The notes: a model not told the origin generated them from the letters alone. A stretch of 64,000 nt of DNA from Marsupella aquatica (GCA_973895155.1 OZ316894.1:1-64000), one strand, 5' to 3'; shown: positions 19,848-64,000, numbered from the stretch's first letter. Numbers and translations are program-made.

Positions 19848-19850
19848 CTT

Positions 19851-22434: not shown

Positions 22435-23132
22435 CAAGGGAAACTAGGTTCTCATTGTGTGTAAATTAAGGCTTCAAGAAAAAATGACTAGTCTTGAGGG
22501 CTATAGTTCAATTTTTATTGATCATTTATCTGAGGTTTTGTCCTTCTTCTAGATTGCAGGATGTTGTGTATCTATAGTGAGAAATAATTATATCTCGTCA
22601 TTGAGTTTGATGACCTGGACTTCAAGAGGCATGGACTTCTCCCCACTTTTGAAATTAGATTCTGGTGGGTGCAATAGGTCCAATTTATATGTGTGGTGCA
22701 ACGTTACATTGAAAAACCTAAATTGGTGCTTCTACTACTAGAGCAAGGTTGAGGTGAGTCGGGGAGTTGGAGTTTGTATCTAATCTTTGCAATTCATATT
22801 TCAATGAGATATGTGTAGACACATCCACCGTGTATTTTCTAAAAGTTTTATTCTTCAAAAATCCAAAAAATGACATTTCCACAACCCACTCAAGTAAGTA
22901 ACATAATTTCTATTTTTTTCAATAATTTTTTTAAAAATTATTAATATAATAGACATTGTGGATTTAAGTAATTAAAAAATATTATATTATTACAAGTTTA
23001 TATTAATTTTTAATTAAAATTACTATTGATAATAAATATTTACTATATTTAATAGTGTAACAGTTTTATTTAAAAAGTTTGGAAAACAATTTGATTAGTA
23101 CTGACACAAAAATGAAATTGACAATTTTGCAG

Positions 23133-24509
23133 ATGCTCCATAAACGAAGGGAGAGGAGAAAAAATGAAAATAAATTTCATGAATATGGCGCCGAATTTTC
23201 TATCATAACATTTTGTTCAATATGGGATTATCTAAGCAAATTATGTGAATCTAAACAACAATTTATTTTATATTGGATTTTAAAAAATGAAAATATTTTT
23301 GTATATTTTGTTACACACATTTTACAAATAAATGTGTCCAATTTTTCAAGAGCTAAATTTTTGAATGGGTATAACAACTGCAGAAGTGCAATTCCACCAA
23401 TTCTCCCTCTTCAAACACTTCAACAAACCGAGAAAATCTTTCATCATCATCAACAGAGACAAAAATTGCCTCCACTATTGAAAAAATTCATGGGAAAATT
23501 TCACATCCTTAACCTATCCCAACTCCGTACCTTACAAGTAGAGAGGGTAGCTTCTTGTAAAGTTGACAATACATTCTCTTCAACACAAGTAGAAGTGCAA
23601 CAAATATCAAAATCACAACTGAAAAAATTGACTGGAGTGATAATGGGAAATTGGAAGGAAGACATGACTAAAACCAATCATAGTAATCTTACATTCACAT
23701 TTGAGCGTTATCCATCAAATTTTCTAGTGATAGAGAAATCTGAAAATATTGTTTACTTTTACGACAAGTCAGGGAAAAAGCCTTGGCTTGTAGCAATGCT
23801 CATGCACCAACAAATATTGGGAGTGACAACATTACAATTCATTCGAAAACTTTTGAGTGCATTGTTTGTTGCTCATTCTCCATTTCAAAGAGGCGAGGGG
23901 AAAAAAGCTTTTGACAGCTTCATGACAGGATATGGTCCTTGGAATAGCAGTTACATGGGTGGCCGTTTGACTTATTACACACACCAGAAGAAGATGAATA
24001 CCATTTTCGATGATTGCCTTGATGTCAAAGATTTTGAGAAGTGGATCGATAAATATTCACATATTGAACTTATGGATATTATATTGGGCCTTTATATGTG
24101 GTGGTGCCCAGAGATGATAGAGTGTTTTTTGGAATACTCTCATCCATACTTACTATCATCTGATCGTGACAAACATCATGGAAGTGAAGAGCAGATAGGG
24201 GAGAATGTTAGACCTAGTACTTACCAATTATATATAAGTGAGGATTATTGTGTGCAAACACATGCTGATGATGATGCAACTGACTTCACCTTAGCGTATG
24301 CTAGTCATCCTGACCATTTCCTTTCAGCAATCGATTTTGTAATTCCAGAGTATGGAATTAGATTGCCAATTAGAGATGGAAATCTATTTGCATTTCGGAG
24401 CGATGTAGTTCATGGTACAGGCTTTAGGATGAAAACATCGAATCCTGCATATGTTGGAGCTATTACCGTGAATAAAAACCTCAGCAGACTGATGCAAAAA
24501 TTACATTAA
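23133..24509 (+). CDS. TET/JBP-like Fe(II)-dependent dioxygenase (458 aa from ATG 23133), apparently intact
   Basis: DSBH motifs: FMTGYGPW...YY; THADDD (HxD); FVIPEYGIRLPIRDGNLFAFRSDVVHGTG (distal His). A TTTTGCAG acceptor lies immediately before the ATG. Confidence 0.7.
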   Translation: MLHKRRERRKNENKFHEYGAEFSIITFCSIWDYLSKLCESKQQFILYWILKNENIFVYFVTHILQINVSNFSRAKFLNGYNNCRSAIPPILPLQTLQQTEKIFHHHQQRQKLPPLLKKFMGKFHILNLSQLRTLQVERVASCKVDNTFSSTQVEVQQISKSQLKKLTGVIMGNWKEDMTKTNHSNLTFTFERYPSNFLVIEKSENIVYFYDKSGKKPWLVAMLMHQQILGVTTLQFIRKLLSALFVAHSPFQRGEGKKAFDSFMTGYGPWNSSYMGGRLTYYTHQKKMNTIFDDCLDVKDFEKWIDKYSHIELMDIILGLYMWWCPEMIECFLEYSHPYLLSSDRDKHHGSEEQIGENVRPSTYQLYISEDYCVQTHADDDATDFTLAYASHPDHFLSAIDFVIPEYGIRLPIRDGNLFAFRSDVVHGTGFRMKTSNPAYVGAITVNKNLSRLMQKLH

Positions 24510-34041: not shown

Positions 34042-34536
34042 TTAGGTTTTCTCTTCTGACCATGTTGTCATTATTATAACAAAAATTAACAATCTTTATT
34101 TAGTCCAATTTTAACTCACAAATTTCCAACCATACTTTAATAACCTATAATTAATTTTTATAGATAATTTTTGGTTACATGCATGAATGATCTTAGTGTA
34201 CACATGATATATGACATTGAAATCTACAATTTATTATGTAACCCTAAGGATTATCATTGCAATGACAATAATTCTTTTGAATCCTTTGTATTTTATCTCA
34301 TTCGTATCCTTGTTTGAAATGGTGTTGCAGAGTTCCTTTGGCTCTTCATGTCAACATAGAATCAAGGTGTAGGGTGAGCAATTGTAGTAGTGGATCAGAT
34401 CTCTGCGTGGGCTCACGAACCTGAAGGTAGGGCTGGTGTCCATCCTATACACAGTGACACTTCCAATTCATTCCAATTACAGCAAATATCTTTCCAGCAT
34501 GTCAACTAAATTGCAATGTCTTATTGATTTGTAGGC

Positions 34537-35217
34537 ATGGCATGTAACAAGCAGAAGGCCAAGAAGCCTAAGACGGAGGTGAGCAACACACAGGTGTCTT
34601 GCACAGATTGTGAGAATTTCTCCAAGAGTCAAGTGTACCAGAAGGCAGCTCATTGTTGTGCCATTTGTGATGATGGTGGGGGCTTGGTTATCTGTGATGG
34701 CCCATGCACGAGACATTTCCACCTAAACCCTGAGTCTAACCTTGCTGTAGAGAACAATTGTCCAGGGGTGGGGCTCCCCTCTGCACACAAGGGAGCCTGG
34801 ATGTGCACTGATTGTGTAGAGAAGCAAGCTAAGTGTGCACAGTGTGGAAAGTTGGGGTCTTATGAGACCTTTGCTGATGCCGGACTAGTTGTTAGGAAAT
34901 GCCCTGACAGATTTTGCATAAGATTTTATTGTTTGTCATGTTTGCCTACTCATGCCACAGTCTGCCCACTTCATACATGCAAGGCATGTGGTGAGCATGA
35001 TGATGAGTATTGGACAGACATAGTCCATTGTGTTAGATGTCCCACAATGTGGCATTTTCATTGTTTGAAGGACCTTCAAGCAGAAGGCTATGCTTGTGAC
35101 AGAGAAATCTATGATCACTCTGCACATGGCGTTGATCGATGGATCTTTTACTGTCATCGCCATCCGATTGATCCTACTTTGCATACTCCTGTCAGAGATC
35201 ACATATCTTGGCTTTGA
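34537..35217 (+). CDS. Stand-alone EDM2-type multi-PHD zinc-finger protein (226 aa)
   Basis: CAICDDGG.L..CDGPC.RHFH...C.DC....CAQCGKLGS...C..RFYC..C...CPLHTCKAC...CVRCPT.WH.HCL...IFYCHRHPID..L.TPVRDH matches the EDM2 PHD module, including its TPVRDH tail. Acceptor TTTGTAG just before the ATG. Confidence 0.85.
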   Translation: MACNKQKAKKPKTEVSNTQVSCTDCENFSKSQVYQKAAHCCAICDDGGGLVICDGPCTRHFHLNPESNLAVENNCPGVGLPSAHKGAWMCTDCVEKQAKCAQCGKLGSYETFADAGLVVRKCPDRFCIRFYCLSCLPTHATVCPLHTCKACGEHDDEYWTDIVHCVRCPTMWHFHCLKDLQAEGYACDREIYDHSAHGVDRWIFYCHRHPIDPTLHTPVRDHISWL

Positions 35218-35727: not shown

Positions 35728-35922
35728 AAATCAGTACTTTGGGAAGGTGAGTACCTAAACATCAAATTTATTTCTTTTTGTCCTCCTAAATCTTAAATGG
35801 TTCATAAATCCAATGACAAAAGTTACTTACGGCATTTTGGTACTCAGATCTTAAATGGTTCGTGTACTATTTGACCGGAATTGTAATTTTTACTAAATAA
35901 ATTATTTGTTCTTACATGGCAG

Positions 35923-37286
35923 ATGGGAAAAAGAAAGCGTAATACTTTAAGAAAAAAAGAATTGGGGGAAGATTTTTCTGTGGATGTATTTGCTACAGTG
36001 TGGGAAGACCTCAAAAAATTAGATACCGTAAAATTGAAGTTTGCACTTCATTGGATTCTATGTCATGACAACATTCTTGAACTTTTTGTTAAAAAAGTTC
36101 TTAAACTAGAGTCTTCAAGATTTTCAAGAACACTATTCTTGAATGGGTATCAAAATTGTAGAAGCCATATCATTCAGATCTTTCCTCCTGAGGTGTTCAT
36201 TGAAATTGATGATATCTATTTTCATCATGGTTTCAGACTAAAATTACCTCAACCTTTGAAAAAATCAATTACTATGTTTTCTAATCTTGACATTAGAAAG
36301 CTTAAACTTTTCAAAAAGAAAGAGATAATCTTTGTAGAAATGGAGGAACTTATGCTAAAGTTGAAGTAGACGTTCAACGTATTTCCTCTTCAAAACTAAA
36401 AACACTTACTGGTGTAATTTTAGGTGATTGGGATCAAACTACAACAACATTTACCTCTGATCCAAACTTTATTTTCTTAAAATTTCCATCAGACCTCATT
36501 ATCGTAGAAGAAAAGAAAGGATTTACCTATCTTTTTGATAGGTCTGGAGTCAAACCATATTTGATAGCAATGATATTCCATCAAGATATCCTATCACCTG
36601 ATTCAATGGTCTTCATTCGAAGATTATTAGAATAATTACATGCTGCCCATCATGTTATCCAAAGAGGGAAAGGAAAAAGATCATGGGAAAGTAAGATGAC
36701 AGGGTTTGGTCCTTTTCATAATCCTTACAAAAAAGATCAAAGTTGTGTATCTTTTTATACTCATGAACAAAAGATAAAGACATTCTTCAATCAAGATTAT
36801 CCCGATGCAGCCAATTTTGAAGACATGGTAGATAAATATTCTCATCGAGAGTTAATCGACATTATTCTTGGACTCTACATGTGGTTATGTCCACAAATGT
36901 TAGACAGCTTTTTAGATTATTCTCATCCTTACTTATGTTCAAATGATTATAAGATGAACATATTTGAGAAAGCACTAAAATGTAAAGGTCCTAGTGCTTA
37001 TCAATTATATATTAGTAAAGATTATTGTGTAGAAACTCATGCTGATCATGATACAGCAGAATTTACTTTATGTTATGTTAGTCATCCTGATGCCAAGATT
37101 TCTCCTGGAAACTTTGTTATTCCAGAGTATGGAATATTATTACCTATTAGAGATGGTAATTTATTTTCATTTCGTAGTGACATTATCCATGGCACAGGAT
37201 ATAGAATTCCAACATCAAATTCTATATATGTAGGAGCTGTTACCATAAACAAAAAATTAGATAGACTTTTACAAAGAAAACATTAA
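35923..37286 (+). pseudogene. Second TET/JBP-like dioxygenase, disrupted
   Basis: Clear paralog of 23133-24509 (DKYSH.EL.DIILGLYMW.CP; THADHD; FVIPEYGILLPIRDGNLFSFRSDIIHGTG). Frameshift at ~36330 and in-frame TAA at 36633-36635. Confidence 0.8.
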
Positions 37287-44531: not shown

Positions 44532-47500
44532 CTAACTGTAATTGTAATCAGTAAACATATCAAAGTGAATTCGCTCCGAGGTCGTGTTGTCCCTTTGATC
44601 AAGTGCAGCATATCGAGCTTCCCGGTCTTCATCTACTTGCTCTTGTCTTGCATGACACTGAGCCCATCTTCTCTTACTCATGTCATTCCTAAATGCCATT
44701 TGTCTCTCCTCTCTCTGTCCGGGGGTTTCCTCGACCATAATACCTTCCTCATTGTACAGTTTACACACACCAGGTCCTCGCTTGTCTGAAAGTTGTAATT
44801 CATCATCAATGTCCCCTTCTTCTAGGGATTGAGTAATGAGGTAGGACTTACTGACACCTGCAGCACTTCCCCATCTTAACATAGGCAGCTCACCTTTCAG
44901 AAACCCAGCTGCCACCATCAAATTGTACATCCTAGCAGCCAAAGGCCTTGCTCGACTAAATAATTTCCACAAATCTAGACCACCATCCTCCATCTCTCCA
45001 GTAACTGAGATGCGGACATCTGCTTTCTTGCCTGACCTTCCCACAACTTCGTATAATGTTCTTGTGAAGCAGTACCATTTGAAATACCGAAGATCCTTGA
45101 GCATGTTGTTGTATGTTTCAATGTGATGGACACTCCACAACCATTTCTCGATCTGCTCCAAAAAACTTATCTGCTGATTTGTCCTGTAACTAGGTGTCAT
45201 TAGTATCCGGATACTTGGATGGTGCTGCCAGATAGAAAAGTAAGTGGGGGTCGCTTCGTACATAACAGCTATTCCATCCTGTCCTTCTATTTGATCTCCC
45301 TCTTGCACTTGGTAATCCTGTGGTGGATCATGATATCCCCAAAGCAAAGCGGGACCAAAGTACTTCCCAATATTATAATTATACACACCTAGCTCTAACC
45401 GTGTAATAACTACTTCCGTGGGAGTCACTGCTTCCCAATAACTACTTTTCTCCAAGTGAACCAAAGATACATCTTCGGGGTTAAAGGGGTATACATCATT
45501 TCTAAAGTAACCCCCTTGACGAGCCACCACCGCTGGGTCACGCCTCAATTCATAAAAGAACCTCATTGCCAAGTGACTAAGCTCAGGTGCAATTGGTAGA
45601 TTGAAACTCATCCAATCATCAGATACTACTATGTCAGAGGTGAAAAATGGGTTGAATGCGACAGTAACCCCGTCCCTCTCCATCTTCTTCCACTGGGCAG
45701 CCTCCAAAAATGTGATGAGTCGGGGAAGTGTATACTTCCCACAATTGATCCGTACTTCCAGAGCAGCCCACGTTTTCAATATCAAGGGCAACAACTCATA
45801 TAACTTACTATAAACATCTAGACAACATTTTCTCTGGTTATCCCTCTGTGCTAATCCCTCATGAACCATATTAGCCATTGCTTTAAGTGCAATAAAAGTT
45901 TCATTTTGAGGATGCTCCCTTTCTAATTCCGACAACATGAATTGAGCTATTCGACTGTTAGCCCGACCTCCTAATCTATAAGACAAATCCTCAGGTAATT
46001 GTACATTAATATGTCCAGACCACTCAAAAAAAGGCAGCATGAATCTAATCCTTATAGGGACTTCATCCCAAATCTGATCCCAATCTCCAGGTCTGATATC
46101 CCTTTTATTTACCTCTGCACTGGCCAAAATTATCCGAAGGGTTTCTAGTCCGAGGGCTTCATCAACCTCAATCGGATGCCAACCATCACTCTGCTCTCCA
46201 GACATTGTGGTCCAGTGGTTGATGCTGATCTTTTTCAGGATCTCAACTCGTTGTTTGTTTATTGGGTCTTTCAAAGCCCCATCCAATAACTTGGTGGCTT
46301 TCTTTGCTTCATCTCTCAACTCTTGCACTCGAAGTTCCCAAGCATCATAAGCATGTCGTGGTATCCGAACATCCTTAGAATTACATTGCACCAACTCTCG
46401 CTGGGCTATTTCACCCAACCACTTCTTTCTCTCCTTCTCTCTTTGCTTGGCACTTAATTCTAATGTTCGGATATACTCCACCCTCTCCAGGTTTTGCTGC
46501 TCCAACTTTTGTAACGCTTCAAAAGTCAGTGTGAGCTGCTGGGTAGTTTCTTTTAGCGACTTCTCTATCACTGTTATCATCTGAGAGGTATGACCTGCAC
46601 ATTGAGAGTGAGTATAGCGCACTTTAGCAAATTCATCTTCTAATTGCAGCCACTTCTCCTTTTCTTCTTCATATTGGCCTGAAGCCTCCTTGCTCGCTTT
46701 TTGGGCCTCCTTCAATTGTGCATTCAACTCTCTGCCCTCTTCTTCAAAGGCAGCTACATACCGACTCAATTCTTCTGCCTTTGTGGTATTCTGAGCGTGT
46801 TGCTTCTCTGCTTCCTTCCGGACAGTTGTCACTTCCTCTATCAGCAAAGTAATCCTTGCCTCTCTTTCTTGGGACTTCATCTCCTGCTCATGCAACATTT
46901 GTTCTCGTATCTCCACCTTCTCATTGAGGAGTCTCACCATCTCCTTGTTTTCCTTCAGCAAACTCTCCAACTTCTCAATCCTCTCTTGGAGCTTAAGGTT
47001 GGTGTTGGCGCTTCTGAACAGATCTTCTTCCTGCTGCTTTGCCTTTTCTCTCTCTCTTACCCCAGTTTCTGCTTCGAGTGCACAAATGTGGGCCAACCCG
47101 CACACTTCCTTGGCTTGATGTAACCACAAACGCTTGTCACTTCCTACAGGGAAGGGTCGATTAATAAACTTCATCCTCTGCTCAAAGGAGGTGAGCTCAG
47201 ACAGAACAACATTTGATAACAACTCTGTCAACACTGGTTGATGGTATACATAATCAGATTGGGCAGTGGATGTCATAGCTTCTTCTTCCTCTTCGACCGG
47301 GATTATCACTCTCCTTTTCTTTCTTTTCAAGGACTTAACACACACATTCCCCTTTATCCTCAATGTACGTAATCCTTGTGCGCCTTCTTCATCAGAATTG
47401 TCCACTTCATCTGCACTGCTTGAGACCAGGCCCGAGACCAGGGATCCCTTTGGGGCATAGAGTCTCGGATTATCTTCTTCCCCATCCTCGCTCTCCGACT

Positions 47501-48271
47501 CCTCCTTTTCTTCTTCCTCCTGGTTTGCCTCCTCTCGCTCCTCTGAATCGCTGTCCTGCAAGGAGATTATTGTGACCGCGGTTGTGATCCTATCGGCAGT
47601 GAGGGCGTGGTCCATCACTACGCTTAATACATATGCACAAATTGACGGAAACAATGGTAGCCCCTTCCTGGTTATAACACTTGCAAGGTTGCGCTTCCAT
47701 ATCAGCAATGGGTGAAGAGTTCCATCTAATACTCTCTTGGCAACTGATAGTTGCTCTGGCGTTACATAATGGTACCCACTCTTGAGGATTACCCATTTAG
47801 TAAAGAACTCCACATACTTGCGGACCTCTTGGTTTGTCATAACGCGCCATATTGGACCTTCTTCTCATGCTGGAGCTCTCCTCCTTGTTTTAGGAAGGCA
47901 CTCATCTCTCTTCCCGTAAGTGCCTCAATTGGATAGTCAGCTGGTAGGCTGTCTGGGGCAAAAATCCCAAACAAAGTCGCTAATTCCTTGTTGGGGATGC
48001 GGTAGGCTTGTGCTCTGTATGTGATAAACACTCCAGTATCTGCAAAATTGACATCCACAATATCTTTGTAAAGCTGACAAGCACGATCAATTGATACAAA
48101 CCTATCAATTCGGACAAGCCCATAGCATCGAGCCCTTTCAAATATCTCTCTGTATTCTTCAATGAAAGCCACCTCAGAGATTGAGTTCCTCAATCTTTCT
48201 TCTGGAGTTGATCGAGGTTGTTTATTTTTGGCTGGAGGGACCTCTACTCGGGTTTGATTTGGAGATGTCAT
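44532..48271 (-). CDS. Retroelement-type accessory protein: 144-aa and 1102-aa ORFs overlapping by ATGA (probable frameshifted single gene) with acidic tract and long coiled coil
   Basis: Long intronless ORFs adjacent to gypsy integrase; E/K/Q-rich heptads; no catalytic motif recognised. Confidence 0.55.
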
Positions 48272-50737
48272 TGTGAAATCTTTACAAATGAAGGTAGTTC
48301 AGTCAACTTATCCACTTCGCAAACATTCGGAACATCCTTCCTTCCTAAAGATTTCAATGGGGCGCTCGCACTGTGAAAACTCTAATATACTTGGCAAACA
48401 TGTTGGTCTCATAGATTGAAGTGGTTTCAATGATGGCACGGTCAATTGAATAGCGGACGGTGGTCTTAGTGTCTTAGTGCCTTTCCTTTTATGGTGTTTG
48501 AATCCTCTTCCTCCTACAACTTGGAGCAATAGCTTCCCTCGTTCCACTTCCTTTTGTATCCAAACAATGATGACTCTTCTTCTCTTGAATGGAGACTGAG
48601 GGTACAATCCCTCTTGTGATGATATTCGCTTGAATGGAGAGGGTACAATCCTGACACTGTTCATTTTCTTGTCGGCCACCCTTTTGTCCTATATCTCATG
48701 AAGTTGGGTACACCCCACACAACATACAAACCGTTAAAAGTTTCTGACAATTAACCTAGTTGTACTTAGACAATACTTTAATATATAAATCATGACTTGT
48801 TAATCATTAATTATGCTTTATTATCTCTCTTTGCAACACTATTAGGGGGTCACACATTACACACAACTTATAAAAAAGGAGATTGAACTAAAAAAGAACA
48901 AACTATATGACCAAAGGATAGACTCTCAATCTAGGGGATCTTTCCGCAAGCCACCTAATCTAGAATAGTTTTCATTACTTAGATAGTTTGCACTACTATA
49001 TATTATTCACAACTATATTATATCTCAAATATATGTTTCTTGAAGAAGTGTGTTATAATTCCACTCCTCTCAATTAGTTGTTTATTTTAATATATGTACT
49101 AGAAAGCTTAATTTCTACTCAATTAGTAGTTTAATGTATGCTAGTAGAACATTATGGACCATATTAGACTCTCAAAACTCAAGCTAAAAGCCCTTATTTT
49201 CCTGGTCATATATTATGCAGAAGATTGCAAAAATCACATCACTTTGGATGAGGTAATTAATTTCTCCTATATTTTCACTAAAATTTGTAAAATTATCTTA
49301 TCATAACAATCTACGATACCATCAAAATTTTGACCATAAATAATAGCCTTTGACAACTTGAGTTAGAGTTAATATTACATACATTAATTATACTCAAACA
49401 AGGCCTAAAAAATGTAACTAGGGGGCCCACGAACTAATTCCAAATACTCTTTTAGCTCCAATGCACTATCTTTAAAATTTGAAATATTATGGTATCTCCT
49501 CAAAACAACAAGCTGTAAGACTCTAATGCATATACTGAAATCTCTTGTTTAGACTCTATTAGGGCATCAAAGCCCAGCCGTAACTCAGTTATAGCTTAGG
49601 ACATAAATCACTTTTATGGCCTGGAAGTAACTTCTTATGGGGTACCTACAAAGGTGCCCCGCAAGTCTCATACATCATAAAGTTTTATGTCCGTAGGGTG
49701 AAGACCATATGTTTTAAGAGAAGTCGCCCCGGCACTAGTCACTAGTGCAAAGCCTGCCCGGCACAAGTGGCCCCTACGATGATCCCAGTGATGGAATGAG
49801 GGGTGAACTGAGTGTATTTTCCCCACTCACGAATTTGGGCAGCTCCTCTGAAATCCTTGATGAAATCCATCTGGGCATCACACTTAGGTCCACATTCATC
49901 AATATCGTTGTTGTTTGTCCTGAATTCGTAGTCAATGCACTATTGGGGTGAGGAAGAGATTCCCTCCAATCTTATTTAATGATGAGAGCCGCATAGGTGA
50001 CGGTGAGCAAGCTCACCGACATGGCTGCTACGTCGAGCTGTGAATTGTGGTGATGGATGGTTGTCTCCCAAAATTGTTCTACAGGCACTCTCGAGCAAGG
50101 AATTCTTCTAATTGTTTGCTACTTGTTCTTCCATATTACATGAATTTAGTTTTGACAAAGAACAAACAGTTCTGAAACCGAGATTCTACGGGGAATAGAA
50201 ATTGTTTGCTCTTGGATGTCCTTTGCTCATTTTAACAGACTTTCAAACAATGGATTTGATTTTAGACGTATGTTGGTGACAAATCCCCACATGTAACAAT
50301 CTATTGCACATCACATGAAACTAAAATGCTAATCTCTGTGCAAGCGCAATTGAACAACTACTGTTTTTTACTCATCTCTACTTCAATGTTGGTGTCTCTA
50401 TTAGCTTTGAGTGCTTAATTTCAGAGTCTCTCTTAGCTTTGAGTGCAGAATTGTGACTACGCCTGTCGAAATAGTTTCGAGGCGCTCAATTGTCTCAGAA
50501 GTTATTAAATTCCTAGGTTCAACATAGTGGCAAAAGTTACAACGATGCGCCGTCCAAATTTCTGTTGTTCTGATTCTGGCCAACGCTTTCTATTCTGGAT
50601 TTGATTGCCACTACATTTACTTTGTTGCTAAGACCAAAAATCTCTCTTGAAGACTCATTGACAGCCTACGATGGTGATGACACCTGCAACTTTGTCACCA
50701 TCCTTAAGATTCTTTTCTACCCCATAACTAGTTCTTA

Positions 50738-51518: not shown

Positions 51519-54500
51519 TTAATCCTTTAAATCTTTTGTTTGAAGGTTTCGCCACTTGTCTTTCAGATCAATCTGTGTCAAAGTCAATAAAACATGATAG
51601 ATGAGCATGCAATTTGTCTTGTGTGCAAGGGTAAATACAGTAATACAAAAAGCAGGATATAACCATAGAAGACTTACTTCAGACCGGTCAATGAAGTGTG
51701 CACCCTCGGCAGCAAGAATTCGACTCCACTTGCCTGGTCCAAACCTGAAATTAACCTTGGCTTAGAAAACCTCTTGTTCTTAGAGAAAAACACCAATTAA
51801 TACCAGCTAGGTAAGATATTACGTCAATGCATTTTGATTGATAAGTCATAGGTTCACTACTTGCCTACGGACTGCCTGTTTGAGACAATTTGTTTCCTCT
51901 TTAGACCACCTTTTAGTTGCCCTACGAACACGTATTAGACCATTGGGGCCTTCTTTCATGACTGCCCGGGTGATCAATTTGGAATTTTGTATTCCAATAC
52001 ACCCTTGATGCAGCCTCAACCTCTTAGATGACGGGCTGGACGTATCCTCCTTCCCTGTGCCCTGCAAAGACATCCAATTTGTAATACTCCAGCAAGGATT
52101 GCAAACATTACAAAATACAGTACATCTTCCATACTGTACAAGATAGATGTTGTTGTCACCAATGATTAAAAACAAGAAGTTTCCTACGGACCACCTCACC
52201 TTGGCACTCGAAGTTGCTAGATTGCCCTCCTCTGCTTTGTCTTTGGATTGGAACGGGGTGATTAGGGACCGAGAAGGAGGATTTAGCAAATCTATAATTC
52301 GTTTTCTCCCTAAGTTCTTCCCCATATCACAAATGCCTTTGTAATTCTCACTCTGTGGGGCTGGAAGCTCAACTAATCTCTGTTCTTCCGGATGAATTAG
52401 GTGTTGGACTTCATTTGATGATTGTTGCATTTTGCTAGTAGTAATTCCTCTGTTGAGCATATTAACCTCTGTGCTCACCTCTGTCACAAAAAAAACACCA
52501 CATTAGAGACTTCAATTCTCCATCAACAGCACATACAAAGACCTAGGAGTCTGAAACTACTCTATACACTATCAATCTGAACTAATCAATGCTAGTTCTA
52601 GTGCAATTTTGGTCAAACTGTAAGACTACATATGAGTTGAACTATGACATTGGTGAGCACTACATACCATACACTGGTTGGGAGGATGCCTGCTTTGGCA
52701 ACAATACAGGCGCCATGATCTGCTGGTTGGCCACCTCCAAAGGAGCTCCTTCATTCTCATCTATCAAATTCTCTTTACCTGTTCCAATCTCCACCCGCCT
52801 TTTTCTATAGTGATTCAATTTAGACTGCAAATACAACCATCCAATTAACGGAAATGATATTTCTCCACCACAATATGTATATTCACAATGACTTGCAGCA
52901 AACAACAAATCAGTCCCACCTTTTACCAAATCTGATAGCTAGTGAGAGAAGACAAGGCCCAAACATTGTTAAAACAATGCATCTGTCTCCTAGCCTGTGA
53001 GTGCGGGACAAAACCAATGGAAAAATCCCAAAAATTTTGTGCACCACTCCATCGAGCGGTGCAAATTAAACCAACTATTTAATAAGACATTTAAGAAAAC
53101 AATCCTTTGGAGGAGGAGGGGAAGGGAGAGAATCATGAGCTAAGTTACCCAAGGTTGATCCAAATAAATACCTGAAGCTCAACTCGGACTTCCTCGGCAA
53201 CACTTTCATACTTGTCTTTCAAAGTATCCACATCCCTACGAACTGCGGCCAAGGTGGTCACCATCATTTCATTCCTCTGTAGGAGTAGCTCCAACTTGAC
53301 ACCTATTGTGTTGTTTGCCTCTACTTGCATCCTCAAGTTGGTCAGTATTGTTTCGTTCCTCTCTGTCTGTAACTCCAAGGTGGTTGTCATCTTCTCATTC
53401 CAGTCTCTCTGGCGCTCTTTCTCTATTTTCAACTCACCTACAACCTCCATCAAGCACAGGCATGATGTACAACAAGATCTGACTGTTTTTGAAGCTTCTG
53501 AAATGCTCAAGGGGAATACATTGTTTAGTGTGAATATGTCAGAGTGCTCCAGCAACTCCGTACCAGTTGTTGTCAACTCGATACCAAATTTTGTCTTCAA
53601 TTTTCCCTGTTCTCTATCCTCTGTTCCAGCCGTTGCTTCCGCTTCGCCCAATGTCTTCCCTGATATTTCATGTTCTTTACCCCCCGACAGAGGTTTTGTC
53701 TCTTGAAGACTCAATGTCTTCATGGACGTTGCATGATCTTCATGGATTATCCCAACCTTTGTCACCATCTCATTGTCACAAGCTCGATTGAACAAAGAAC
53801 CATCTTGGTGTCCGTTCACAAAAGAACCATCTTGCTGACCTTGCGGCTCTGCTCCACTAGTTGAGAATAGCCTGAGAAGTCCTCCACTGCTACATGGATC
53901 ACCCTCATGCACACTAGAAACAACAGTTCCTTTGGCATGTCCTGACATTGCATCATCGTCGTTCACAATTTGCAGATGCATTGTGAGATGTTTTTGTCCT
54001 GTGCAGTTCTCCTCCATCCCGTGGTTTTCCACTCCATGATGCTCCACACCCACTTGAGTAGATGTTTTCCAATGGAATACTTGTGGCCTTGGCAAAGACA
54101 CAATTGAAGGGGACTTCTCACTCAACAGAATTTGCAGATGGGATCCAAAATTGTAAGTGCAAGTCATGTTACCTTCGGAGATTTGTTTCCGGGCTCTGCA
54201 GAGGAGGTCGATCAGTCTCCCGCCAAGATATTCTCCCCAATTCTTCCTACTACTTGTTTCTTCAACTTGCTTTATCTGGCACAAAGACACATCGGCCTTG
54301 CTCCCCTTAAAGTGAAGAGCCCCCAATTGAAACTCTAGCCTCTCTCTGATTAGGGAATCTTTGCAATATTGCAATGAGTAAGAACCATTGCTGTTCCTTT
54401 TAATCCCTGCGAATGACCTTGGATTATATCGAACTGCTTTTTGCTCAAATGGCTCCCCTGACCCTTGCAACTTGAATGTCTTCTTGATAGAATCCAAACT

Positions 54501-54632
54501 CAAGTCTATTCTTCCCCCACAAACCCATGTTTCAGATTGTTCACTGTCAAAGTTCCAGATGAAATCTATCATGTCAGACTTAGAATGACTTAGTGTCCCA
54601 ACGAACTCCCAAAACAAAATCTGCAAGCCCAT
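51519..54632 (-). CDS. Spliced TRF-like (telobox) Myb protein with N-terminal retroelement-accessory-like domain and coiled coil
   Basis: Exons 54632-53172, 52824-52668, 52480-52200, 52061-51865 (GC donor), 51744-51678 and 51572-51519 join in frame. They give ...RWSKEETNCLKQAVRRFGPGKWSRILAAEGAHFIDRSEIDLKDKWRNLQ, where LKDKWRNL is the telobox. Confidence 0.8.
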
Positions 54633-54896
54633 TGTGCTGAAGATATTCTGAATGTCGCGCTTGACACAATGTCGTCACCACAAGTGGTGGGATAAAATAG
54701 AATGTTGGCATCGCCATAGGCTTGGAAGACATCGTTGTCCCTTCTTCCCACTAGTAGGCATGTACACCAAACCTCTGGTGGCACACTATCTTGGTTTGAT
54801 ATCAGTTTGATATGTAGACAAATGTCATGCTAGACTGTGGTGACAATGAGAATGGTCGTGCTCCCCAGGTTCTTACAATAGTCTACGAGCCCATTA

Positions 54897-56498: not shown

Positions 56499-56930
56499 CA
56501 TGTACAAATATTGAGGCGAGACCAAGGAAAGAACTGTACACTCCTTGGGACAAATCAATAGTAGATTTATGAAGGTGAGTACCTTAACATCAAAATTCCC
56601 CCTTTCTTCCCACCTAGTACATGTAAAATATTCATAAATCTAATGATAAAAATTACAACTTACAACTGCATTTCGGTACTCAGATCTGAAATGGTTCGTG
56701 TACTATTTGACCGGAATTATAATTTTTACTGAATTAGAATTAAAATCTTGAAAAAATTTATGTGGATTTGTTTGCTACAGTGTGGGAAGATCTAAAAAAA
56801 TTGACACCATAAAATTGAAGTTTACACTTTATTGGATTCTTTATTATGAAATATTCTTGAACTTTTTGTTAGAAAAGTTCTTAAACTAAAGTCCTCAAGG
56901 TTTTGAAGGACACTGTTTTTGAATGGCTAT
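56499..56930 (+). pseudogene. Second truncated, decayed 5' fragment of the dioxygenase gene
   Basis: Highly similar to ~9066-9500 (TGTACAAATATTGAGGCGAGACCAAGGAAAGAACTGTACACTCCTTGGGAC...) and homologous to 35620-36160. Confidence 0.8.
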
Positions 56931-56991
56931 CAAAGATGTCACCTTTTGGATGTGGTTACAATTATCCCTATTTTCATTGCTCCCCGTGTGA

Positions 56992-57405
56992 ATGAGGGTA
57001 CTCTTATCTCCTGAGGGTACCCTTGTGCTTGAGGGTACTCTTATCAGTGAGGGTACTCTTATCAGCGAGGGTACTCTTATCAATGGGTACGCTTATCAAT
57101 AATGGTACTTTGATCAATAAGGGTACCCTTATCAATGAGGATACTCTTATCTCCTGAGGGTACCCTTGCGTATGAGGGTACTCTTATCAATGAGGGTACT
57201 CTTATATCAGCAAGAGTACTCTTATCAATGAGGATACTCTTATATCAGCAAGAGTACTCTTATCAATTAATGGGTACACTTATCAACAATGGTACTTTGA
57301 TAATGAGGGTACCCTTATCAGTGAGGGTATTCTTATCTCCTAAGGGTACCCTTGTGTTGGGCCTTGTGCATGAGGGTACTCTTATTAATGAGGGTAATTT
57401 TATTA
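56992..57405. repeat. Second array of quasi-palindromic 18-bp units
   Basis: Same consensus as 9555-9952; contains the perfect palindrome ATAAGGGTACCCTTAT at ~57117-57132. Confidence 0.9.
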
Positions 57406-57853
57406 GTCATAGCAAGCAACAAAGCAGGCAGGGAACCCCATGAAGGCGCCCCGCACCGGCAGAAGGACTCCGAACATACTGAAAAGACCCTAAACCTCAC
57501 TAGACCAACATTTTGGGTATTGCATGGACAAATACTAGCCGAAGTACATGCCTAAATTTACCTGCTCTGTATTAGTTCCCTAAACCAGGGGTGATTTTTT
57601 TCATCAAATCCATACATTGTATCCTAGTTTTTTTCACACATGATGTAAACCTACATAATGTGAAAGTGGGAGAGAAGACTTATGATTTGATACAATCTTC
57701 ATTTAACTATAGTACAATATTCACTAATCATCAGTATATATGGTAAGCTCCAATTCCTCCATATAGTATGTAGACAAAAATTGAAGCAATCGATGAAATA
57801 ATTAACAATTTCATTACACTTGATATTAATTACAGTGCTTCCTTACTTCTTCC

Positions 57854-60800
57854 TCACCAGTACTCAGGATATTTTGTTTTCACAATAGCCGCAGCAAACA
57901 AAACAAAGTTATTCACTACTTTCCCTGTACCTATCTGCATGAACCAAGTAGCAAGTTCTTCATCACTTTTCTCTCGAATTTCCGGAAATTCCTTGAACAA
58001 TTCTGTTTGTATCCAAGAAACCCTCCAGCCTTGCCACACAAAATGTCGAAGACGCTCGCCTGTTCTATCATTGCACTGATCACCATATGGTCCTTTATGA
58101 ATACACATTCCAGTGACAACTACAGTATGTTGAAAGTGACACTTAAAACAAGTCCATGCATTTTGAGGGAATGTGTTCTTGCAGGTCCGGGCCTGGTGAG
58201 ATCCTAGACATCTAAAACACAATGACCGCAATATAGGACAGTTGACAGCATTGTGTACTTCTTGCTCCCTTGATTCAGGACACTGACAAATTAAGCATTG
58301 ACTTCCATCACCCGCAAAAGTTCTGATGATACGAAGATCCCTTTTATCACTCTCAAAAGATTGGCTGTGTGCCATAGCCCTTAGCCTTGCAACCACAGGC
58401 TCTGCTTCATGTACCCCTTGTATAATTGGGGTCATCGGCAAGGTGTTTCCTTGTCGTCTTGGCATGGGAGTGGCTGGGGGTTGCGTAGGAGTTTCATATG
58501 TTGACTCATCCGAACCCCCTCTTCCTGGAATTCCCATTGAAGATGATGCTACCTCATGTGGTGGAATTGAGGCTGTTCTACAAGGAATGTCTTGTGTGAA
58601 CACCTCAAAGTCGACTATGTCCACACCTGGGCTGCACATCACAGATGCTTGGGAACACAAGTCACACAAACTAGAGAATGGAATAAGATGACATACTTGA
58701 GGTTTTCCATCGACCTGGTCATGGAGCCCAAACCGACGACATGATGTCTTGTTCTCTATCCATTTGTGTGAAGCCGCTGTGGTTGAATCAGTGCGTTCGG
58801 CCATCTTGCGATAAGCAAGGTTGGTCACCACATAACTCATCGCCGGGAGCCCATCACGTCCACCTCGTCCAGATTCTTGGTGGAAGTGTTCCAGAGACCT
58901 GAAACTACCACGATGAATGACAAGCTTAACCCATTTATAATTGTATCCACTACTAATCACTCCGGTGGCCACCATGATCTTACAAGCACCTGACGTCCAA
59001 GAACTCAATGAAGCCCTCTTCACCGCTATGTCCAGATGCGCATGCACATACACACATGACATTTCTTTCCCTTGGAGGATTCTTGTAGTTGATTCCACCT
59101 CCTCGCGGGTTAGACAAAATACTAGGGCCCTCTCTTCTGGCAAAGAATATGCTCTCCAATCACGCAGAAGACTCACTATTTCTTGATCCATCATGTTATG
59201 GCCAACCTCAACAACGGCATACCTGATGTTGGGTCTCACAGTAGGACAACGAATCCACACCATCTCTGTAGCTAACATCCGCTCAATATCAACTTGATTC
59301 TTGGGTGCTAGGGATGCAGTTAACCCTATGATTTGGCAATTAATTTCCATGAGGCCAACCAACTTTTTCATTGACGGTCGAAAGTCAGATAACAGGAGGT
59401 GCACCTCGTCGTAGACAATGGAATGCAAGGAACCATTGCATTTCAACTGCTTTGCCAAGATAATGAATAGTTTGGATTCTGCAGCAATCTCCACAGCCAC
59501 AAAAATGATTGAAGGAGGTCTTGCCACTTCGACTGCACCATCCTTATACACAACACAACTAATATTTGCTTGTTTGCATTCCTCTACGTGGCCCTCTACT
59601 AGGATAGTGAGTGGAACGATCACAATCACCGTCCTATTCTGTCCCATGGTGGAAGGTGCCATGAACACCAATGATTTTCCAGACCCAGTGGGTAGTATGG
59701 CAACAAAGTCCACCACATTATCTATGGATAGAGCAACTGCTGTTGCTTGTTCCGACGATTTCCACTGTTGATGACCAAGCCTTCTTAAGGCTTGACAAGC
59801 TCCAGTAGTCCTATTGAGACAAACTTGTAGCAGGGGATCACTTTCTCCACTTGCCAATAATGTCTGATGGATGTTTGAGTGGAAAACTGTAAACCGCCTC
59901 CTTTTGGGAATTTGCCTCACCTCATATTCAACACCTCCAACGGGTCCCAAAAAGTCAAAAGGTGCAGTCGACATTACCTCGGGCCTCTGTGACCCACCGA
60001 GGCCAACCAACTTGTGCCACAATCGTGACACCAATACACACCCTCTTAAAATATGTCCATCCATGCCTCTAGGATCCTTTGTACTACGAGCATAGTGATG
60101 GCCGACCGTAGCTGTTTCATGACCACCTGCTACATCCACAAGGTCTTCTTGTAAATGGGCCTTACAAGCTCGTATATTCTCACTCCAATGTGCTGCCACA
60201 TGCCGGTACTTTGCAATCCCAAATGGAATGCCACAGTGCTTTTGGAAAGCATCTAATACACTGGCAGAAAGGTCTACTCCCGTCAGCCTCTTGTCCATGG
60301 CCACAAACCAACAATCCAGGTACATTGCTGCAACTTCCGGACCCCACAAAATATTCGCCACGAAAGATTGTACTGGGCGAACTAGACATAACAATTTCAC
60401 AAATAGGTGGCTTTGATTGTCAGGAATGAACCGAGCAGTGAAGTTTATAGGTTTCCCAGCATTTGCACATTTGTGGTAGGATTGATAAACCATCAGCGTA
60501 TCAGATAACCAAATGAATGCTCTATCCCCAGTGGCAGTGTTGCGAATCAATAGGCTCGAGTATTCTTCCCCTCTTGCAGGTAATCCAGAACAGAAATGCA
60601 GAAGTAGGTTCAATAGCCTCTGTAGCTTGGAACATGCAACCATCCACCTGTGGAGTGCAGGAATGTTCCAAATAACTCCATTTACATTGTCCACTCGTAG
60701 GATGAAATGTGCCATCATCATAGTATTACTGAACATGTGGTTCAATAGATCCTTTCCATGTTGTTGGAACTCTGGATTTCGGGCGTCTATGAGAAAAGAA

Positions 60801-62812
60801 TAATGCACTTCGTCTGTCTGGACAGCATCATGAATGCAGCCCTTGGTACTCACCAAATTGAGTATCCATTCAGATTTGAGACCGAGAAGAACATCATGGT
60901 TGAGTGTTGTTGTCGCTTCTTCAACAATGGCACGGATCATATCCCTGAACGCATTCAATGTGATAATATCACCGTCAATTGAGCATGTTGTTTGTGTATC
61001 GTCCATGTGTATGAGATTTGGTCGAGCATGGGTGCCTCGATTAATTGTTTTTGCCAGTCGCATGTACTGCCGAACTTGAGTAATCGGCGTGTCCAATGCC
61101 ACATCGCTCACGTATTTCTCCAGGATGTTTACTTCATTCCCAGGTAGGCCACGTGGGTTTGGATGCCAAAGAGCTTGTGAGAGTTCCATCAGGATTGTAC
61201 ATCTTGCCCAGTAGTGAAGTATTGCCAATATTTTGGTGATTTTCCCAATTTTGCAAAATGCATACCCTGTGGATTGGGAACCCAGCCCGTCACTCTTTAG
61301 AGAGTGGAGGATAAAGAACCGAGTGAGCAAACAATCCGCCGGTGAACGAGCATACAACAGCTCCGGAATTTTTGGAGTCCAGAGAAGAAGTAGTACTCGA
61401 TGGATATTTGTGAGATCAATATCACCTTCTTCTGCAGGCCGCGCCTCACTTGGTTGGCCTAATTGTGCCAATAATTGTTGCAGGGCACCTTTTAGATCCG
61501 GCCTATCTGTGTATATAACACAATGTTGAGGCCGAGAATCATAAGTACAAGAACGAACGAGGCAAAGAAGAAGGGAAACCATTCCAGCACAGTATTGTGG
61601 AACAGTGTTTTTCTCTTGTAGTCCACCCAATCCCCTTGTGACATCGGCATTTGGAGTCGGCTTCATCACCATTCTTTGCACCCTATAATCTAAATTTCCA
61701 CTAAGAATATTTCTTGTGCATGTCATGTACGCACGGACCACAGTGCCCAAGTACGATAGTGAAGACCTAGGGTCGGCGGGCCTTGGGGGTTCCATCTCAG
61801 ATTGCACTTCAACAAATGGCACACCTTCAGGCATGAACTGGGATGCAATCTCATGCCACCTTGATACCCTTAGCCACGGCGACAATTCCCTCACTGGAGG
61901 TGCAAGATCTGTCTTTAATGACTGTAGATGAGCTTGAAAAACTTTTGCGACTGCACCTCTCGTACTCTGAGCTACTGCATCGTCCGCAAGGTACACATTG
62001 CCATGGTCCACTCCATAGAATTTGCGGCCGACTCCCTTGAAGAGGGCTTGCACTTGACATGGAGTAGCAATGTCCTTGAAACCAAGGTGGTTGTGTTTCA
62101 TACATCGGTGATTTGCCATCGTCCGCTGTGATCTACAAAAGAAGATACATCTCGAGCAAGAGAATCCCCAATGAATGAGGACGCCCGGAACTGGAGACAA
62201 CAATTCTGCAATTGGATTGATTGTGTATGGTAGTAGGGACGCATCATTTGTACGTGTGAACAACACACCCTGCAACAAAACCGACAATTGCTCTGGTGTT
62301 GGATTCGTGATTGAATTTTGTGTTGCAACTCTCACCCTGCCCATGTTCCTTCGATGACTTCCAACATGATGGATAATGCTACTTCCTTCCGTGTGCTGAA
62401 GGGCTATATGGCATTGCAAGCATACTAGAAGAACAAGGTTGTTGTGGTGAACAATGCAAAGCTTTGCATTTCTCAACATGTCTGGTGTTGCTAACAGGTC
62501 ATGATCTAGGATAGTGGTGGGGACTTGGTTGACAATTGGATCGTCTACATCCATGAACGGGTCAACTCCTACTGCTTCATTGTGTTTCCTTTTGTAGTGA
62601 AGACGTAAACTATCACTACGGGGATAGGACGAGGAACATGTGGCCACAGGGCAATGGAATCGACCATCCTCTTCTTTCTCAATGATCTGGGTTGTGCCAT
62701 TGTTGAGCTGCAATTGGTAAGTAGAACGGTGAACTGAGCGGGAATGGGAACTGCGAGAGTTTGCTGACTGAAATTCTTCCCCACACTGACTACATCCAAA
62801 TACTGTCACCAT
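57854..62812 (-). CDS. Fungal-type telomere-linked-helicase-like protein: C2H2 fingers, DUF3505-like Zn domain, tyrosine-recombinase-like domain, RecQ helicase and C-terminal Zn knuckles (1652 aa, intronless)
   Basis: CSQC..HSRSVH and CPVATC..HYKRKH; LVCLQC/CSRC..NH..KH/CQVQALF; SGLPARGEE..YRH..AGGH..HYA; ILPTGSGKS, DEVH, TAS, RPNIRY, QESGRGGRDG, CRR..L..CDLC. Confidence 0.85.
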   Translation of the reverse strand: MVTVFGCSQCGEEFQSANSRSSHSRSVHRSTYQLQLNNGTTQIIEKEEDGRFHCPVATCSSSYPRSDSLRLHYKRKHNEAVGVDPFMDVDDPIVNQVPTTILDHDLLATPDMLRNAKLCIVHHNNLVLLVCLQCHIALQHTEGSSIIHHVGSHRRNMGRVRVATQNSITNPTPEQLSVLLQGVLFTRTNDASLLPYTINPIAELLSPVPGVLIHWGFSCSRCIFFCRSQRTMANHRCMKHNHLGFKDIATPCQVQALFKGVGRKFYGVDHGNVYLADDAVAQSTRGAVAKVFQAHLQSLKTDLAPPVRELSPWLRVSRWHEIASQFMPEGVPFVEVQSEMEPPRPADPRSSLSYLGTVVRAYMTCTRNILSGNLDYRVQRMVMKPTPNADVTRGLGGLQEKNTVPQYCAGMVSLLLCLVRSCTYDSRPQHCVIYTDRPDLKGALQQLLAQLGQPSEARPAEEGDIDLTNIHRVLLLLWTPKIPELLYARSPADCLLTRFFILHSLKSDGLGSQSTGYAFCKIGKITKILAILHYWARCTILMELSQALWHPNPRGLPGNEVNILEKYVSDVALDTPITQVRQYMRLAKTINRGTHARPNLIHMDDTQTTCSIDGDIITLNAFRDMIRAIVEEATTTLNHDVLLGLKSEWILNLVSTKGCIHDAVQTDEVHYSFLIDARNPEFQQHGKDLLNHMFSNTMMMAHFILRVDNVNGVIWNIPALHRWMVACSKLQRLLNLLLHFCSGLPARGEEYSSLLIRNTATGDRAFIWLSDTLMVYQSYHKCANAGKPINFTARFIPDNQSHLFVKLLCLVRPVQSFVANILWGPEVAAMYLDCWFVAMDKRLTGVDLSASVLDAFQKHCGIPFGIAKYRHVAAHWSENIRACKAHLQEDLVDVAGGHETATVGHHYARSTKDPRGMDGHILRGCVLVSRLWHKLVGLGGSQRPEVMSTAPFDFLGPVGGVEYEVRQIPKRRRFTVFHSNIHQTLLASGESDPLLQVCLNRTTGACQALRRLGHQQWKSSEQATAVALSIDNVVDFVAILPTGSGKSLVFMAPSTMGQNRTVIVIVPLTILVEGHVEECKQANISCVVYKDGAVEVARPPSIIFVAVEIAAESKLFIILAKQLKCNGSLHSIVYDEVHLLLSDFRPSMKKLVGLMEINCQIIGLTASLAPKNQVDIERMLATEMVWIRCPTVRPNIRYAVVEVGHNMMDQEIVSLLRDWRAYSLPEERALVFCLTREEVESTTRILQGKEMSCVYVHAHLDIAVKRASLSSWTSGACKIMVATGVISSGYNYKWVKLVIHRGSFRSLEHFHQESGRGGRDGLPAMSYVVTNLAYRKMAERTDSTTAASHKWIENKTSCRRFGLHDQVDGKPQVCHLIPFSSLCDLCSQASVMCSPGVDIVDFEVFTQDIPCRTASIPPHEVASSSMGIPGRGGSDESTYETPTQPPATPMPRRQGNTLPMTPIIQGVHEAEPVVARLRAMAHSQSFESDKRDLRIIRTFAGDGSQCLICQCPESREQEVHNAVNCPILRSLCFRCLGSHQARTCKNTFPQNAWTCFKCHFQHTVVVTGMCIHKGPYGDQCNDRTGERLRHFVWQGWRVSWIQTELFKEFPEIREKSDEELATWFMQIGTGKVVNNFVLFAAAIVKTKYPEYW

Positions 62813-63228
62813 CCTGCATGAAAAACAACAAAATTAGCTGATGCCATATTTTGCTCTGAAATTATATAGAGCTCTTCACATCAGATTTTCCCGTGGAGCT
62901 CCACAATGGACTCTAAAGTCAATCTCAATTGGCCAACTATCGGACTAGTATTTTTCATTTTCCATTACCTATGTCCCAAGCTTGATCTGCACCATGAATG
63001 TGCAATCTAACCCAAAGCTTCACTGACATAGAAGTTGGTTGAGCATGTTCACACATTCAACGTACTTTGTGAGCACAGACACAAATTAAACGAATTCAAT
63101 CCGAATCTTCTCCAAAACCTGGTCAGTTGGATCATATTTTCACTATCTTGGGAAGTGAACTTGTACCATGCACTCTCTCGATGCCCTTGGGGCTAATAAT
63201 TACTCCAATGCCTCTAAAGCCACCAAAC

Positions 63229-63398
63229 TGTTGTAACCCAGGTTAAACCTACTTACCATAGTTCTACTTGCCTAACTAGAGTTCTACCTAACTCAGTTAG
63301 GATAACTGCCTCAGGGCAACGGCCTTCAAGCCGCATGTACTTATTCTTCTCCTTGGGAGTATACACGAGATCTTTTTCCATCTTGTCATGGTCCAACA
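63229..63398 (+). mobile_element. 5' LTR of a Ty1/copia (Bianca-type) element
   Basis: TGTTG...CAACA termini (170 bp) immediately followed by the PBS. Confidence 0.7.
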
Positions 63399-63412
63399 CG
63401 TTATCAGCACGA
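63399..63412 (+). promoter_or_regulatory. Primer-binding site CGTTATCAGCACGA (internal initiator tRNA-Met type)
   Basis: Motif characteristic of Bianca-lineage copia elements. Confidence 0.75.
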
Positions 63413-63747
63413 GTAGTGCTCTGGTTTTTTTCCTTAAATTTTTTTTCCTCCGCCCTTGAACGTCCAACGCGCACGCAATACACTCACCGCGTGAAGTTTT
63501 CAAGACTACGAACAGAGGCAAGGCGAGCGTGCAAGCAGCCGTGCACAACGCGATCGGACAATCAGACAAAGCGAGAGGCTGGAGTGCAGCAACCAACGCA
63601 AATTACAATCGACCACTCCAGCTAACACCTCCAATTATGAAAGCTCTTCACATTCCATTTATTCATGTCATCAATTTGTGAATTCATCAATCTAGACAAA
63701 TTGTATTTCCGCCACTGAAACGCATACTACATATAATCATAGTAATC

Positions 63748-64000
63748 ATGCCTCCGGCAACCATGGAAAAGTTATATTTCCAGCCATTAAGTATTGATGG
63801 CGCCAACTATCTTTCTTGGCAATTGGACATAGAGGCACACTTGACATCCAAAGACATTGCAGACACGATCACCTCCGACACAGGATCTACTTTACAGGAG
63901 CGAGCTCAAGCACTGATCTTAATCAGGCGACATTTGACTGAACCACTAAAGCTTCAATATCTAAACGAGCTCAACCCACGCCGATTGTGGGAAGCACTCC
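63748..64000 (+). CDS. Copia (Bianca-type) gag, N-terminal part (runs off the right edge)
   Basis: MPPATMEKLYFQPLSIDGANYLSWQLDIEAHL...ERAQALILIRRHL..PLKLQYL...P..LW matches Bianca gag (F..L.I.G.NYLSW.LD.E.HL...RAKAMIF.RHHL). Confidence 0.85.
   Translation, partial: MPPATMEKLYFQPLSIDGANYLSWQLDIEAHLTSKDIADTITSDTGSTLQERAQALILIRRHLTEPLKLQYLNELNPRRLWEAL

Follow-up and report, generated by a model that had tools for sequence, protein, structure and literature searches.

An intact, apparently multicopy gene for a predicted tyrosine-recombinase and RecQ-type helicase fusion in the plant Marsupella aquatica

The window analysed here is a stretch of 64,000 nucleotides of DNA from Marsupella aquatica (GCA_973895155.1 OZ316894.1:1-64000). 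It is of plant type, with a P450 exon closest to plant enzymes and with pieces of SMC and NAD-kinase genes and of Gypsy and Copia retroelements. A stop-free frame on the minus strand (57854..62833, -) contains an ATG at 62812, which defines an intact ORF of 1652 amino acids (57854..62812, -). From the N- to the C-terminus the protein comprises zinc fingers, an OrsD domain, a tyrosine-recombinase-like module, a RecQ-type helicase and a Cys/His-rich C-terminus. An earlier note on this DNA had reported an uninterrupted ORF of 4.96 kb, which is confirmed by its 1652 stop-free codons; when the bases of the window were shuffled 30 times, no stop-free frame exceeded 202 amino acids. The description of the gene as intronless holds in that the frame is stop-free and appears fully colinear with its relatives, and its meaning is limited to that. 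The neighbours were described as heavily decayed, which is overstated, as the window contains open frames of 1110, 828, 509 and 482 amino acids.

The two N-terminal C2H2 motifs (62582..62794, -), recognized by reading the sequence, are formed by C7/C10/H23/H28 and C54/C59/H72/H77 and have the patterns Cx2Cx12Hx4H and Cx4Cx12Hx4H. They are followed by the zinc-binding OrsD domain (PF12013, residues 122–241; 62090..62449, -), which is matched in Pfam with an E-value of 6.7e-7, over the curated cut-off, and which we take to be the DUF3505-type family. Pfam also recognizes a DEAD domain (residues 1022–1173) and a Helicase_C domain (residues 1224–1321), and the best PDB sequence matches of the ORF are RecQ helicases (E 3.5e-24), ending at about residue 1330. 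The RecQ-type SF2 helicase core (58850..59779, -), identified from Pfam, PDB sequences and motif reading, contains all the motifs from 0 to VI, among them Walker A at residues 1040–1047, DEVH, and motif VI at residues 1312–1321; the motif names are our assignment from those of RecQ. Four cysteines, C1358, C1374, C1383 and C1386 (58655..58741, -), have the spacing of the RecQ zinc-binding subdomain, to which they presumably correspond, and downstream of them Pfam gives no match to RQC or HRDC in the ORF. The Cys/His-rich C-terminal region (57857..58297, -) contains a CCHC knuckle-like motif and is matched by 19 of the 170 relatives compared. The DUF3505-like plus RecQ architecture noted earlier is thus borne out by the OrsD, DEAD, Helicase_C and PDB matches; that picture was incomplete in missing the tyrosine-recombinase domain in the middle.

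The approximately 780 residues between OrsD and the helicase carry no Pfam annotation. A model of residues 290–950, built from 89 sequences (pLDDT 87.4, pTM 0.86), was compared by full alignment with 48,161 chains. Tyrosine recombinases, together with proteins that share their fold (topoisomerase IB, Ndc10, SroF), occupy the top 25 of the 50 rows listed. The best match is the archaeal Xer 4a8e (Z 10.6, rmsd 3.1, 163 residues aligned), XerD and Cre score Z 9.3 and 8.1, and the row that follows the recombinase-fold block has a Z of 4.8. XerH (5jjv) spans both domains (model residues 59–661, Z 9.3, 279 residues, rmsd 7.0), and the integrase N-domain 3nrw on its own matches model residues 66–295 weakly (Z 4.7). 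The structure match of the model predicts a core-binding, N-terminal helical domain at residues ~355–584 (61061..61750, -), while the model and the conserved residues predict a catalytic domain at residues 716–945 (59978..60667, -). The catalytic part modelled alone (pLDDT 88.4) also has 4a8e as its best match (Z 11.2, rmsd 3.2, 145 aligned), followed by Xer, Cre, IntI and integrases, with the first clearly unrelated row at rank 30 (Z 3.5). Z-scores of 9–11 are moderate, and the fold is also used by topoisomerase IB, protelomerases and the non-catalytic Ndc10.

Other searches with the module were less informative. At E<=0.001, Foldseek against the PDB gave no match with either of the two models, and for the catalytic part it listed Cre weakly (probability 0.33, TMq 0.36). 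No PDB sequence was matched by a profile built from 39 relatives, and an alignment-based profile search over the PDB recovered helicases alone. As a lead, the Atlas named match for the module is PF00589 at 0.85. The best row from a viral structure library is an uncharacterised Feldmannia virus protein with a probability of 0.98 but an E-value of 0.033, which is not used as evidence; its phaeovirus homologue is presumably an integrase.

Residue conservation was assessed in a 136-row alignment of residues 590–945, in which 135 relatives were scored and rows with coverage below 72% were dropped. The predicted catalytic-type residues, all encoded on the minus strand, are R747 (60572–60574; conserved in 133 of 135), K781 (60470–60472; 132 of 134), R870 (60203–60205; 131 of 132), H898 (60119–60121; 121 of 126) and Y907 (60092–60094; 124 of 125), together with E750 (134 of 135). 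Their roles are our assignment, from an order and spacing as in Cre and Xer. The R-K-R-H-Y set is intact in the query and in 117 of the 124 relatives, out of 135 rows, that have letters at all five positions; in the same alignment the remaining K columns reach at most 0.21 and the remaining H columns at most 0.78. The first histidine of the H-x-x-R motif is absent, being replaced by A867 in a variable column, and an invariant-like H/Q follows R870. The module thus resembles Xer, Cre and phage integrases (4a8e, 5jjv, 1a0p, 1kbu) in its predicted core-binding and catalytic fold, its residue order and the 9-residue spacing from H to Y, but differs from them in sequence (8–18% identity), in its large insertions, in the missing H-x-x-R histidine and in the domains fused to it. 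As modelled, it is very probably a catalytically competent enzyme of the recombinase fold.

On its own strand the ORF heads an apparently multicopy block, which on the left meets low-depth host DNA near 21600–22430. About 450 bp past the stop codon is an 18-bp minisatellite array (56993..57405, unstranded; second copy at 9554–9952), and a broken N-terminal relic of a TET/JBP-like gene (56750..56954, +; another N-terminal relic at 9317–9526) faces the ORF. The unit of relic and minisatellite recurs alone, 85% identical, at 9068–9952 in the host-gene region. Several genes of the block are possible cargo. An open frame of 509 residues (53145..54674, -) has no Pfam match. Some 6 kb downstream of the ORF, a C-terminal single Myb domain in three exons (51520..51925, -), with predicted GC-AG and GT-AG introns, is weakly matched by Pfam Myb (E 0.11) and is multicopy by depth; its exons searched singly against the PDB gave no match. 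It ends in LKDKWR, the telobox motif as given in PMC4924339. An NSD-type PHD finger array (34528..35217, +) is matched with E 5.7e-5, under the curated cut-off. A TET/JBP-like dioxygenase paralog lies in two frames (35887..37286, +) and is 56% identical to the intact paralog, an open 482-residue frame with the HxD motif (23061..24509, +). The latter has an Atlas feature score of 0.93, taken as a lead, and in the Atlas cluster matched PF12851 is found in 16% of members; searches of Pfam and of PDB sequences returned no match for it. A further 36 short frames of the block have no Pfam match, and homologues of the candidate cargo are absent from the 20 related loci and 197 relative proteins described below.

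Upstream of the ORF, a Copia LTR retrotransposon (63229..64000, +; DUF4219/gag, weak) is inserted about 420 bp before the ATG, and the upstream end of the presumed element is therefore hidden. A decayed piece of plant NAD kinase 2 type (32200–33510, -; PF22741, E 6.8e-8) is possibly a captured host fragment. A Gypsy-type retroelement (39400–48700, -) contains an integrase at 42946–43848 and frames of 828 and 1110 amino acids without a Pfam match. Positions 27667 and 31992 are joined on opposite strands in contigs of three runs, which implies a different arrangement at this point in other copies of the block. A repeat family is split around the last P450 exon (18943–22425 and 2224–4694), and tandem repeats of ~850 and 472 bp, 97% identical, occupy 10691–12861.

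Contig coverage was examined in four sequencing runs over 48.5–64 kb and in four over 12.6–32.5 kb. In run X1 one contig of 5,814 nt covers 57758–63229 with 21 differences and 3 gaps at a depth of 107; at 63229 it leaves the window sequence and continues with 345 other letters without Copia. Depth in this run is 129–168 over 49.5–55.7 kb and 127 over 22378–25711, and is 15 and 31 over the host P450 pieces. In run X3 the bins of the ORF range from 3,286 to 11,119, compared to 31–118 for P450 contigs, with uneven depth along the block. These values hint that X1 contains some seven nearly identical copies and X3 a larger number, bearing in mind that contig depth is not equal to copy number and that segmental duplication could equally raise it.

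The ORF is probably the self-encoded engine of an old tyrosine-recombinase/RecQ DNA element resident in plant genomes, and the spread of the gene is proposed to result from the predicted tyrosine-recombinase domain, which is likely to mobilise its own element. The zinc fingers and the core-binding domain would bind the ends of the element, and Y907, becoming covalently linked to the DNA, would cleave and religate it, so that the element would be excised and then reinserted. The intermediate is probably a circle by analogy with Starships, for which a circular intermediate is reported (PMC10104507). The helicase would act on this intermediate by unwinding or branch migration, or else would serve to copy the element. 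The TET/JBP-like, PHD and telobox-Myb genes of the apparently multicopy block may be cargo; that the recombinase moves the whole 40-kb block together with them is doubtful. As no cargo homologue is seen in the 20 related loci and depth in X3 varies along the block, one giant element is no more than a possibility. Element ends, terminal direct repeats or an empty site were not found in the repeats of the window or in the related loci L003–L019.

Starship captains and the Crypton tyrosine-recombinase DNA transposons, which have short terminal direct repeats and no inverted repeats, are eukaryotic parallels to such a Cre/Xer-fold recombinase with R-K-R-H-Y type residues, which in the ORF are predicted. 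Terminal inverted repeats are likewise not seen, and the ORF is possibly the first gene of a cargo block, as in Starships; in the captains, a histidine position is reported to be variable (PMC10104507). Unlike them, the ORF is fused to OrsD and a RecQ helicase. Pfam gives no match in the ORF at E<=1 to DUF3435, the captain family, or to DUF3504 or GCR1_C, which go with Cryptons. AcademH and KolobokH are DNA transposons with DDE transposases and inverted repeats. They also carry a RecQ/SF2 helicase (PMC10799480 and PMC3627910), whereas the helicase of the ORF shares its chain with a putative tyrosine-recombinase transposase.

The ORF is related to the fungal telomere-linked helicases (TLH). TLH genes are described in fungi (M. 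oryzae TLH1, S. pombe tlh, F. oxysporum, B. cinerea) and in the choanoflagellate Monosiga, and the accessible parts of the three reports state no function for the “TLH domain” (10.1101/2024.02.27.582403, PMC1635262, 10.1101/2022.03.07.483234). In the available text of the Fusarium preprint (10.1101/2024.02.27.582403) the words recombinase and integrase are absent. Like the TLH genes, the ORF is a single frame of the ~1,600-residue class, is apparently multicopy with broken copies and is adjoined by tandem repeats. It has RecQ helicase motifs, and its two C2H2 motifs fit both TLH patterns given in 10.1101/2024.02.27.582403. A conserved region of ~250 residues before the RecQ core is shared with a Suillus protein, and the predicted catalytic domain may correspond, by its position, to the “TLH domain”. 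Unlike TLH, the ORF lies in a plant host, in a clade apart from the Suillus match. Within the window, the 57 kb on its 3' side hold host genes and no telomere array, with at most two adjacent TTTAGGG units, and the ORF is therefore classed as TLH-like rather than as TLH.

One alternative is that the gene is a non-transposing factor of telomere or subtelomere maintenance, in which a topoisomerase-IB-like or telomere-resolvase-like module is joined to a helicase and copies spread passively by repeat recombination. Topoisomerase IB (Z 7.9, 7.0) and protelomerases (Z 4.0–4.6) indeed match the models of the module, and the loss of the H-x-x-R histidine is in line with such a role, as are the telobox Myb gene and the minisatellite near the ORF. 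The fungal relatives are telomere-linked and are induced in telomere crisis (10.1101/2024.02.27.582403 and PMC1635262); in Magnaporthe 11 of 11 TLH copies are subtelomeric (PMC1635262), for which transposition is not needed. Xer/Cre-type recombinases, however, score higher and align over both the core-binding and the catalytic domains. The telomere in Magnaporthe lies within ~5.5 kb of the 3' end of the gene (PMC1635262), as opposed to the 57 kb free of telomere arrays here. In the second host described below, moreover, the copies have unlike flanks, one being beside a plant-type gene. A maintenance gene is thus unlikely, and a mobile element is preferred.

More broadly, the ORF could belong to a eukaryote-wide, undescribed class of DNA transposons with a tyrosine-recombinase/RecQ fusion. 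It would be an intact, recently multiplied member, heading a Starship-like element of >40 kb with TET/JBP-like, PHD and telobox-Myb cargo, and the fungal telomere-linked helicases would form a telomere-targeted branch. This wider reading is put forward tentatively and is less probable than not in its full extent.

Relatives of the ORF were collected with a HMMER scan using residues 121–960, which gave 1,393 proteins, of which the best 150 were used. A profile search recovered a single protein, compared to the 1,393 of the full scan, and a word-based protein search with residues 300–960 found no match. Among 30 of the best 150 matches, those labelled with an organism are three Calypogeia fissa proteins (51%, 37% and 35% identity) and one Suillus protein (27%). 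A search with the helicase gave 23 proteins. These include a further copy from Calypogeia, whose contig is 3.8 Mb long, as well as a protein of the red alga Gracilaria domingensis (P0186), which has the whole order of OrsD, recombinase and helicase. One relative of 2480 residues (P0130) shows an additional weak SET match (E 0.003).

In metagenome contigs, 20 of the 125 pattern matches are relatives of the ORF (loci L001–L020), while none of the 29 pattern matches in viral contigs is. Loci L003–L019 form one diverged and mostly broken family, with distinct copies 72–93% identical, differing flanks, nested insertions and stops. dN/dS among copies, a calculation suggested in the earlier note, is 0.18–0.30 in 6 of 7 pairs of this family and 0.73 in the closest pair; together with the stops and insertions this is as expected if the copies spread under selection and decayed afterwards. 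The host of the family is likely a second plant, and one flank resembles, in our reading, a plant gene. In locus L007, frames at 2357–4464 flank a recombinase-only fragment of the family; they have no Pfam match and we take them to resemble the plant RING ligase SDIR1. L001/L002 represent a near-complete copy, located in L002 at 8613–13822 with apparent short introns. It adjoins a gene with a Crinkler N-terminal domain (15670–16107, E 1.8e-17), a neighbour which suggests that the plant-containing clade includes a copy from an oomycete or an early fungus.

The helicase-domain phylogeny that had been proposed was run on 68 rows, with 12 bacterial-type RecQ rows as outgroup and no plant RecQ. All 56 fusion-type rows are on one side and the bacterial-type rows on the other, and the query shares a 16-row clade with L002, Calypogeia and the L003 family (SH-aLRT 100). 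The recombinase tree of 136 rows shows a 27-row plant-containing clade (SH-aLRT 99), which includes a second Calypogeia lineage and the L003 family, and the query is sister to a Calypogeia fissa sequence (support 100/99). In AU tests on a 32-row subset, grouping of the query with the Suillus group was rejected (p-AU 0.000113), while the plant rows as a single clade were compatible with the data (p-AU 0.143); most rows across the trees carry no taxon label. Silent sites between the query and L002 or the L003 family are saturated (pS ~0.8).

These relationships bear on the second alternative, namely that the plant lineage acquired a fungal telomere-linked helicase gene by a horizontal transfer that is recent or can be traced. 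The earlier note had proposed either a fungal-plant transfer or an old mobile family retained in bryophytes. Fungi are the group from which the architecture is best known, the Atlas neighbours are fungal clusters, no angiosperm is present among the organism-labelled matches, and L002, beside its Crinkler gene, falls inside the plant-containing clade. The nearest protein is nevertheless from a liverwort, at 51% identity compared to 27% for the named fungal match, and the family is also present in a red alga and in a choanoflagellate (for the latter, 10.1101/2024.02.27.582403). The Calypogeia sister, the rejected Suillus grouping and the saturated silent sites therefore argue against a recent fungal transfer; among the sequences compared a recent fungal donor is excluded. 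The transfer is quite unlikely and is not demonstrable from these data. The retained mobile family, on the other hand, fits the Calypogeia sister, the second Calypogeia lineage and the dispersed family in a likely plant host. That the gene was exchanged in ancient times, where the plant-containing clade has its base, is a serious possibility, if short of being probable, and given the position of L002 beside the Crinkler gene an old exchange between plants and microbial eukaryotes is possible in either direction.

A third alternative is contamination or a chimeric assembly, in which a fungal contig was joined to plant sequence. Among the listed contigs of the runs examined, no contig or read links the ORF to a host gene. 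The stretch is, however, present in six sequencing runs with three organism codes from four studies (the best runs, X1 and X2, possibly derive from the source sample itself). The CpG observed/expected ratio of the ORF, 0.52 overall and 0.36 across codon boundaries, is like that of the retroelements in the window, and its GC content is also that of the window. The repeat flanking the ORF is common to the host-gene region at 9068–9952, and relatives are found on liverwort contigs of 3.8 and 46.8 Mb. The several organism codes, the CpG depletion and the presence of diverged copies in another host, itself likely a plant, thus argue that the ORF is no contaminant, and the contaminant or chimeric join envisaged in the earlier note is highly improbable. 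Finally, that the gene is a cellular RecQ of plants inherited vertically, whether retroposed or intronless, has a negligible probability. The helicase core is RecQ-like but, unlike cellular RecQ, the protein has no match to the RQC winged helix or HRDC and carries the 780-residue recombinase-type module and OrsD in front, and the fusion-type rows are apart from the bacterial-type RecQ rows in a set without plant RecQ.

The function of TLH genes has been open since their first description, and it can be tested directly through the predicted recombinase fold, whose catalytic residues are intact. The literature search, which lay outside most subscription papers, Repbase and supplements, returned no paper joining “telomere-linked helicase” with “tyrosine recombinase”. 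Among the titles and beginnings of abstracts there was none on a recombinase-RecQ fusion and none on TET/JBP cargo in bryophytes. The ORF is whole and apparently recently amplified and can be expressed and assayed as it is. Should it mobilise DNA, it would represent a new class of tyrosine-recombinase transposons in land plants, possibly with large cargo that includes enzymes which could counter silencing by methylation, as well as a new scaffold for site-specific recombinases. The plant-encoded TET-like genes merit a study of their own. Of the four TET/JBP-like copies in the window, the first is an open frame, another lies in two frames and the remaining two are N-terminal relics abutting the minisatellite; dN/dS between the two long paralogs (23061–24509 and 35887–37286) is ~0.16.
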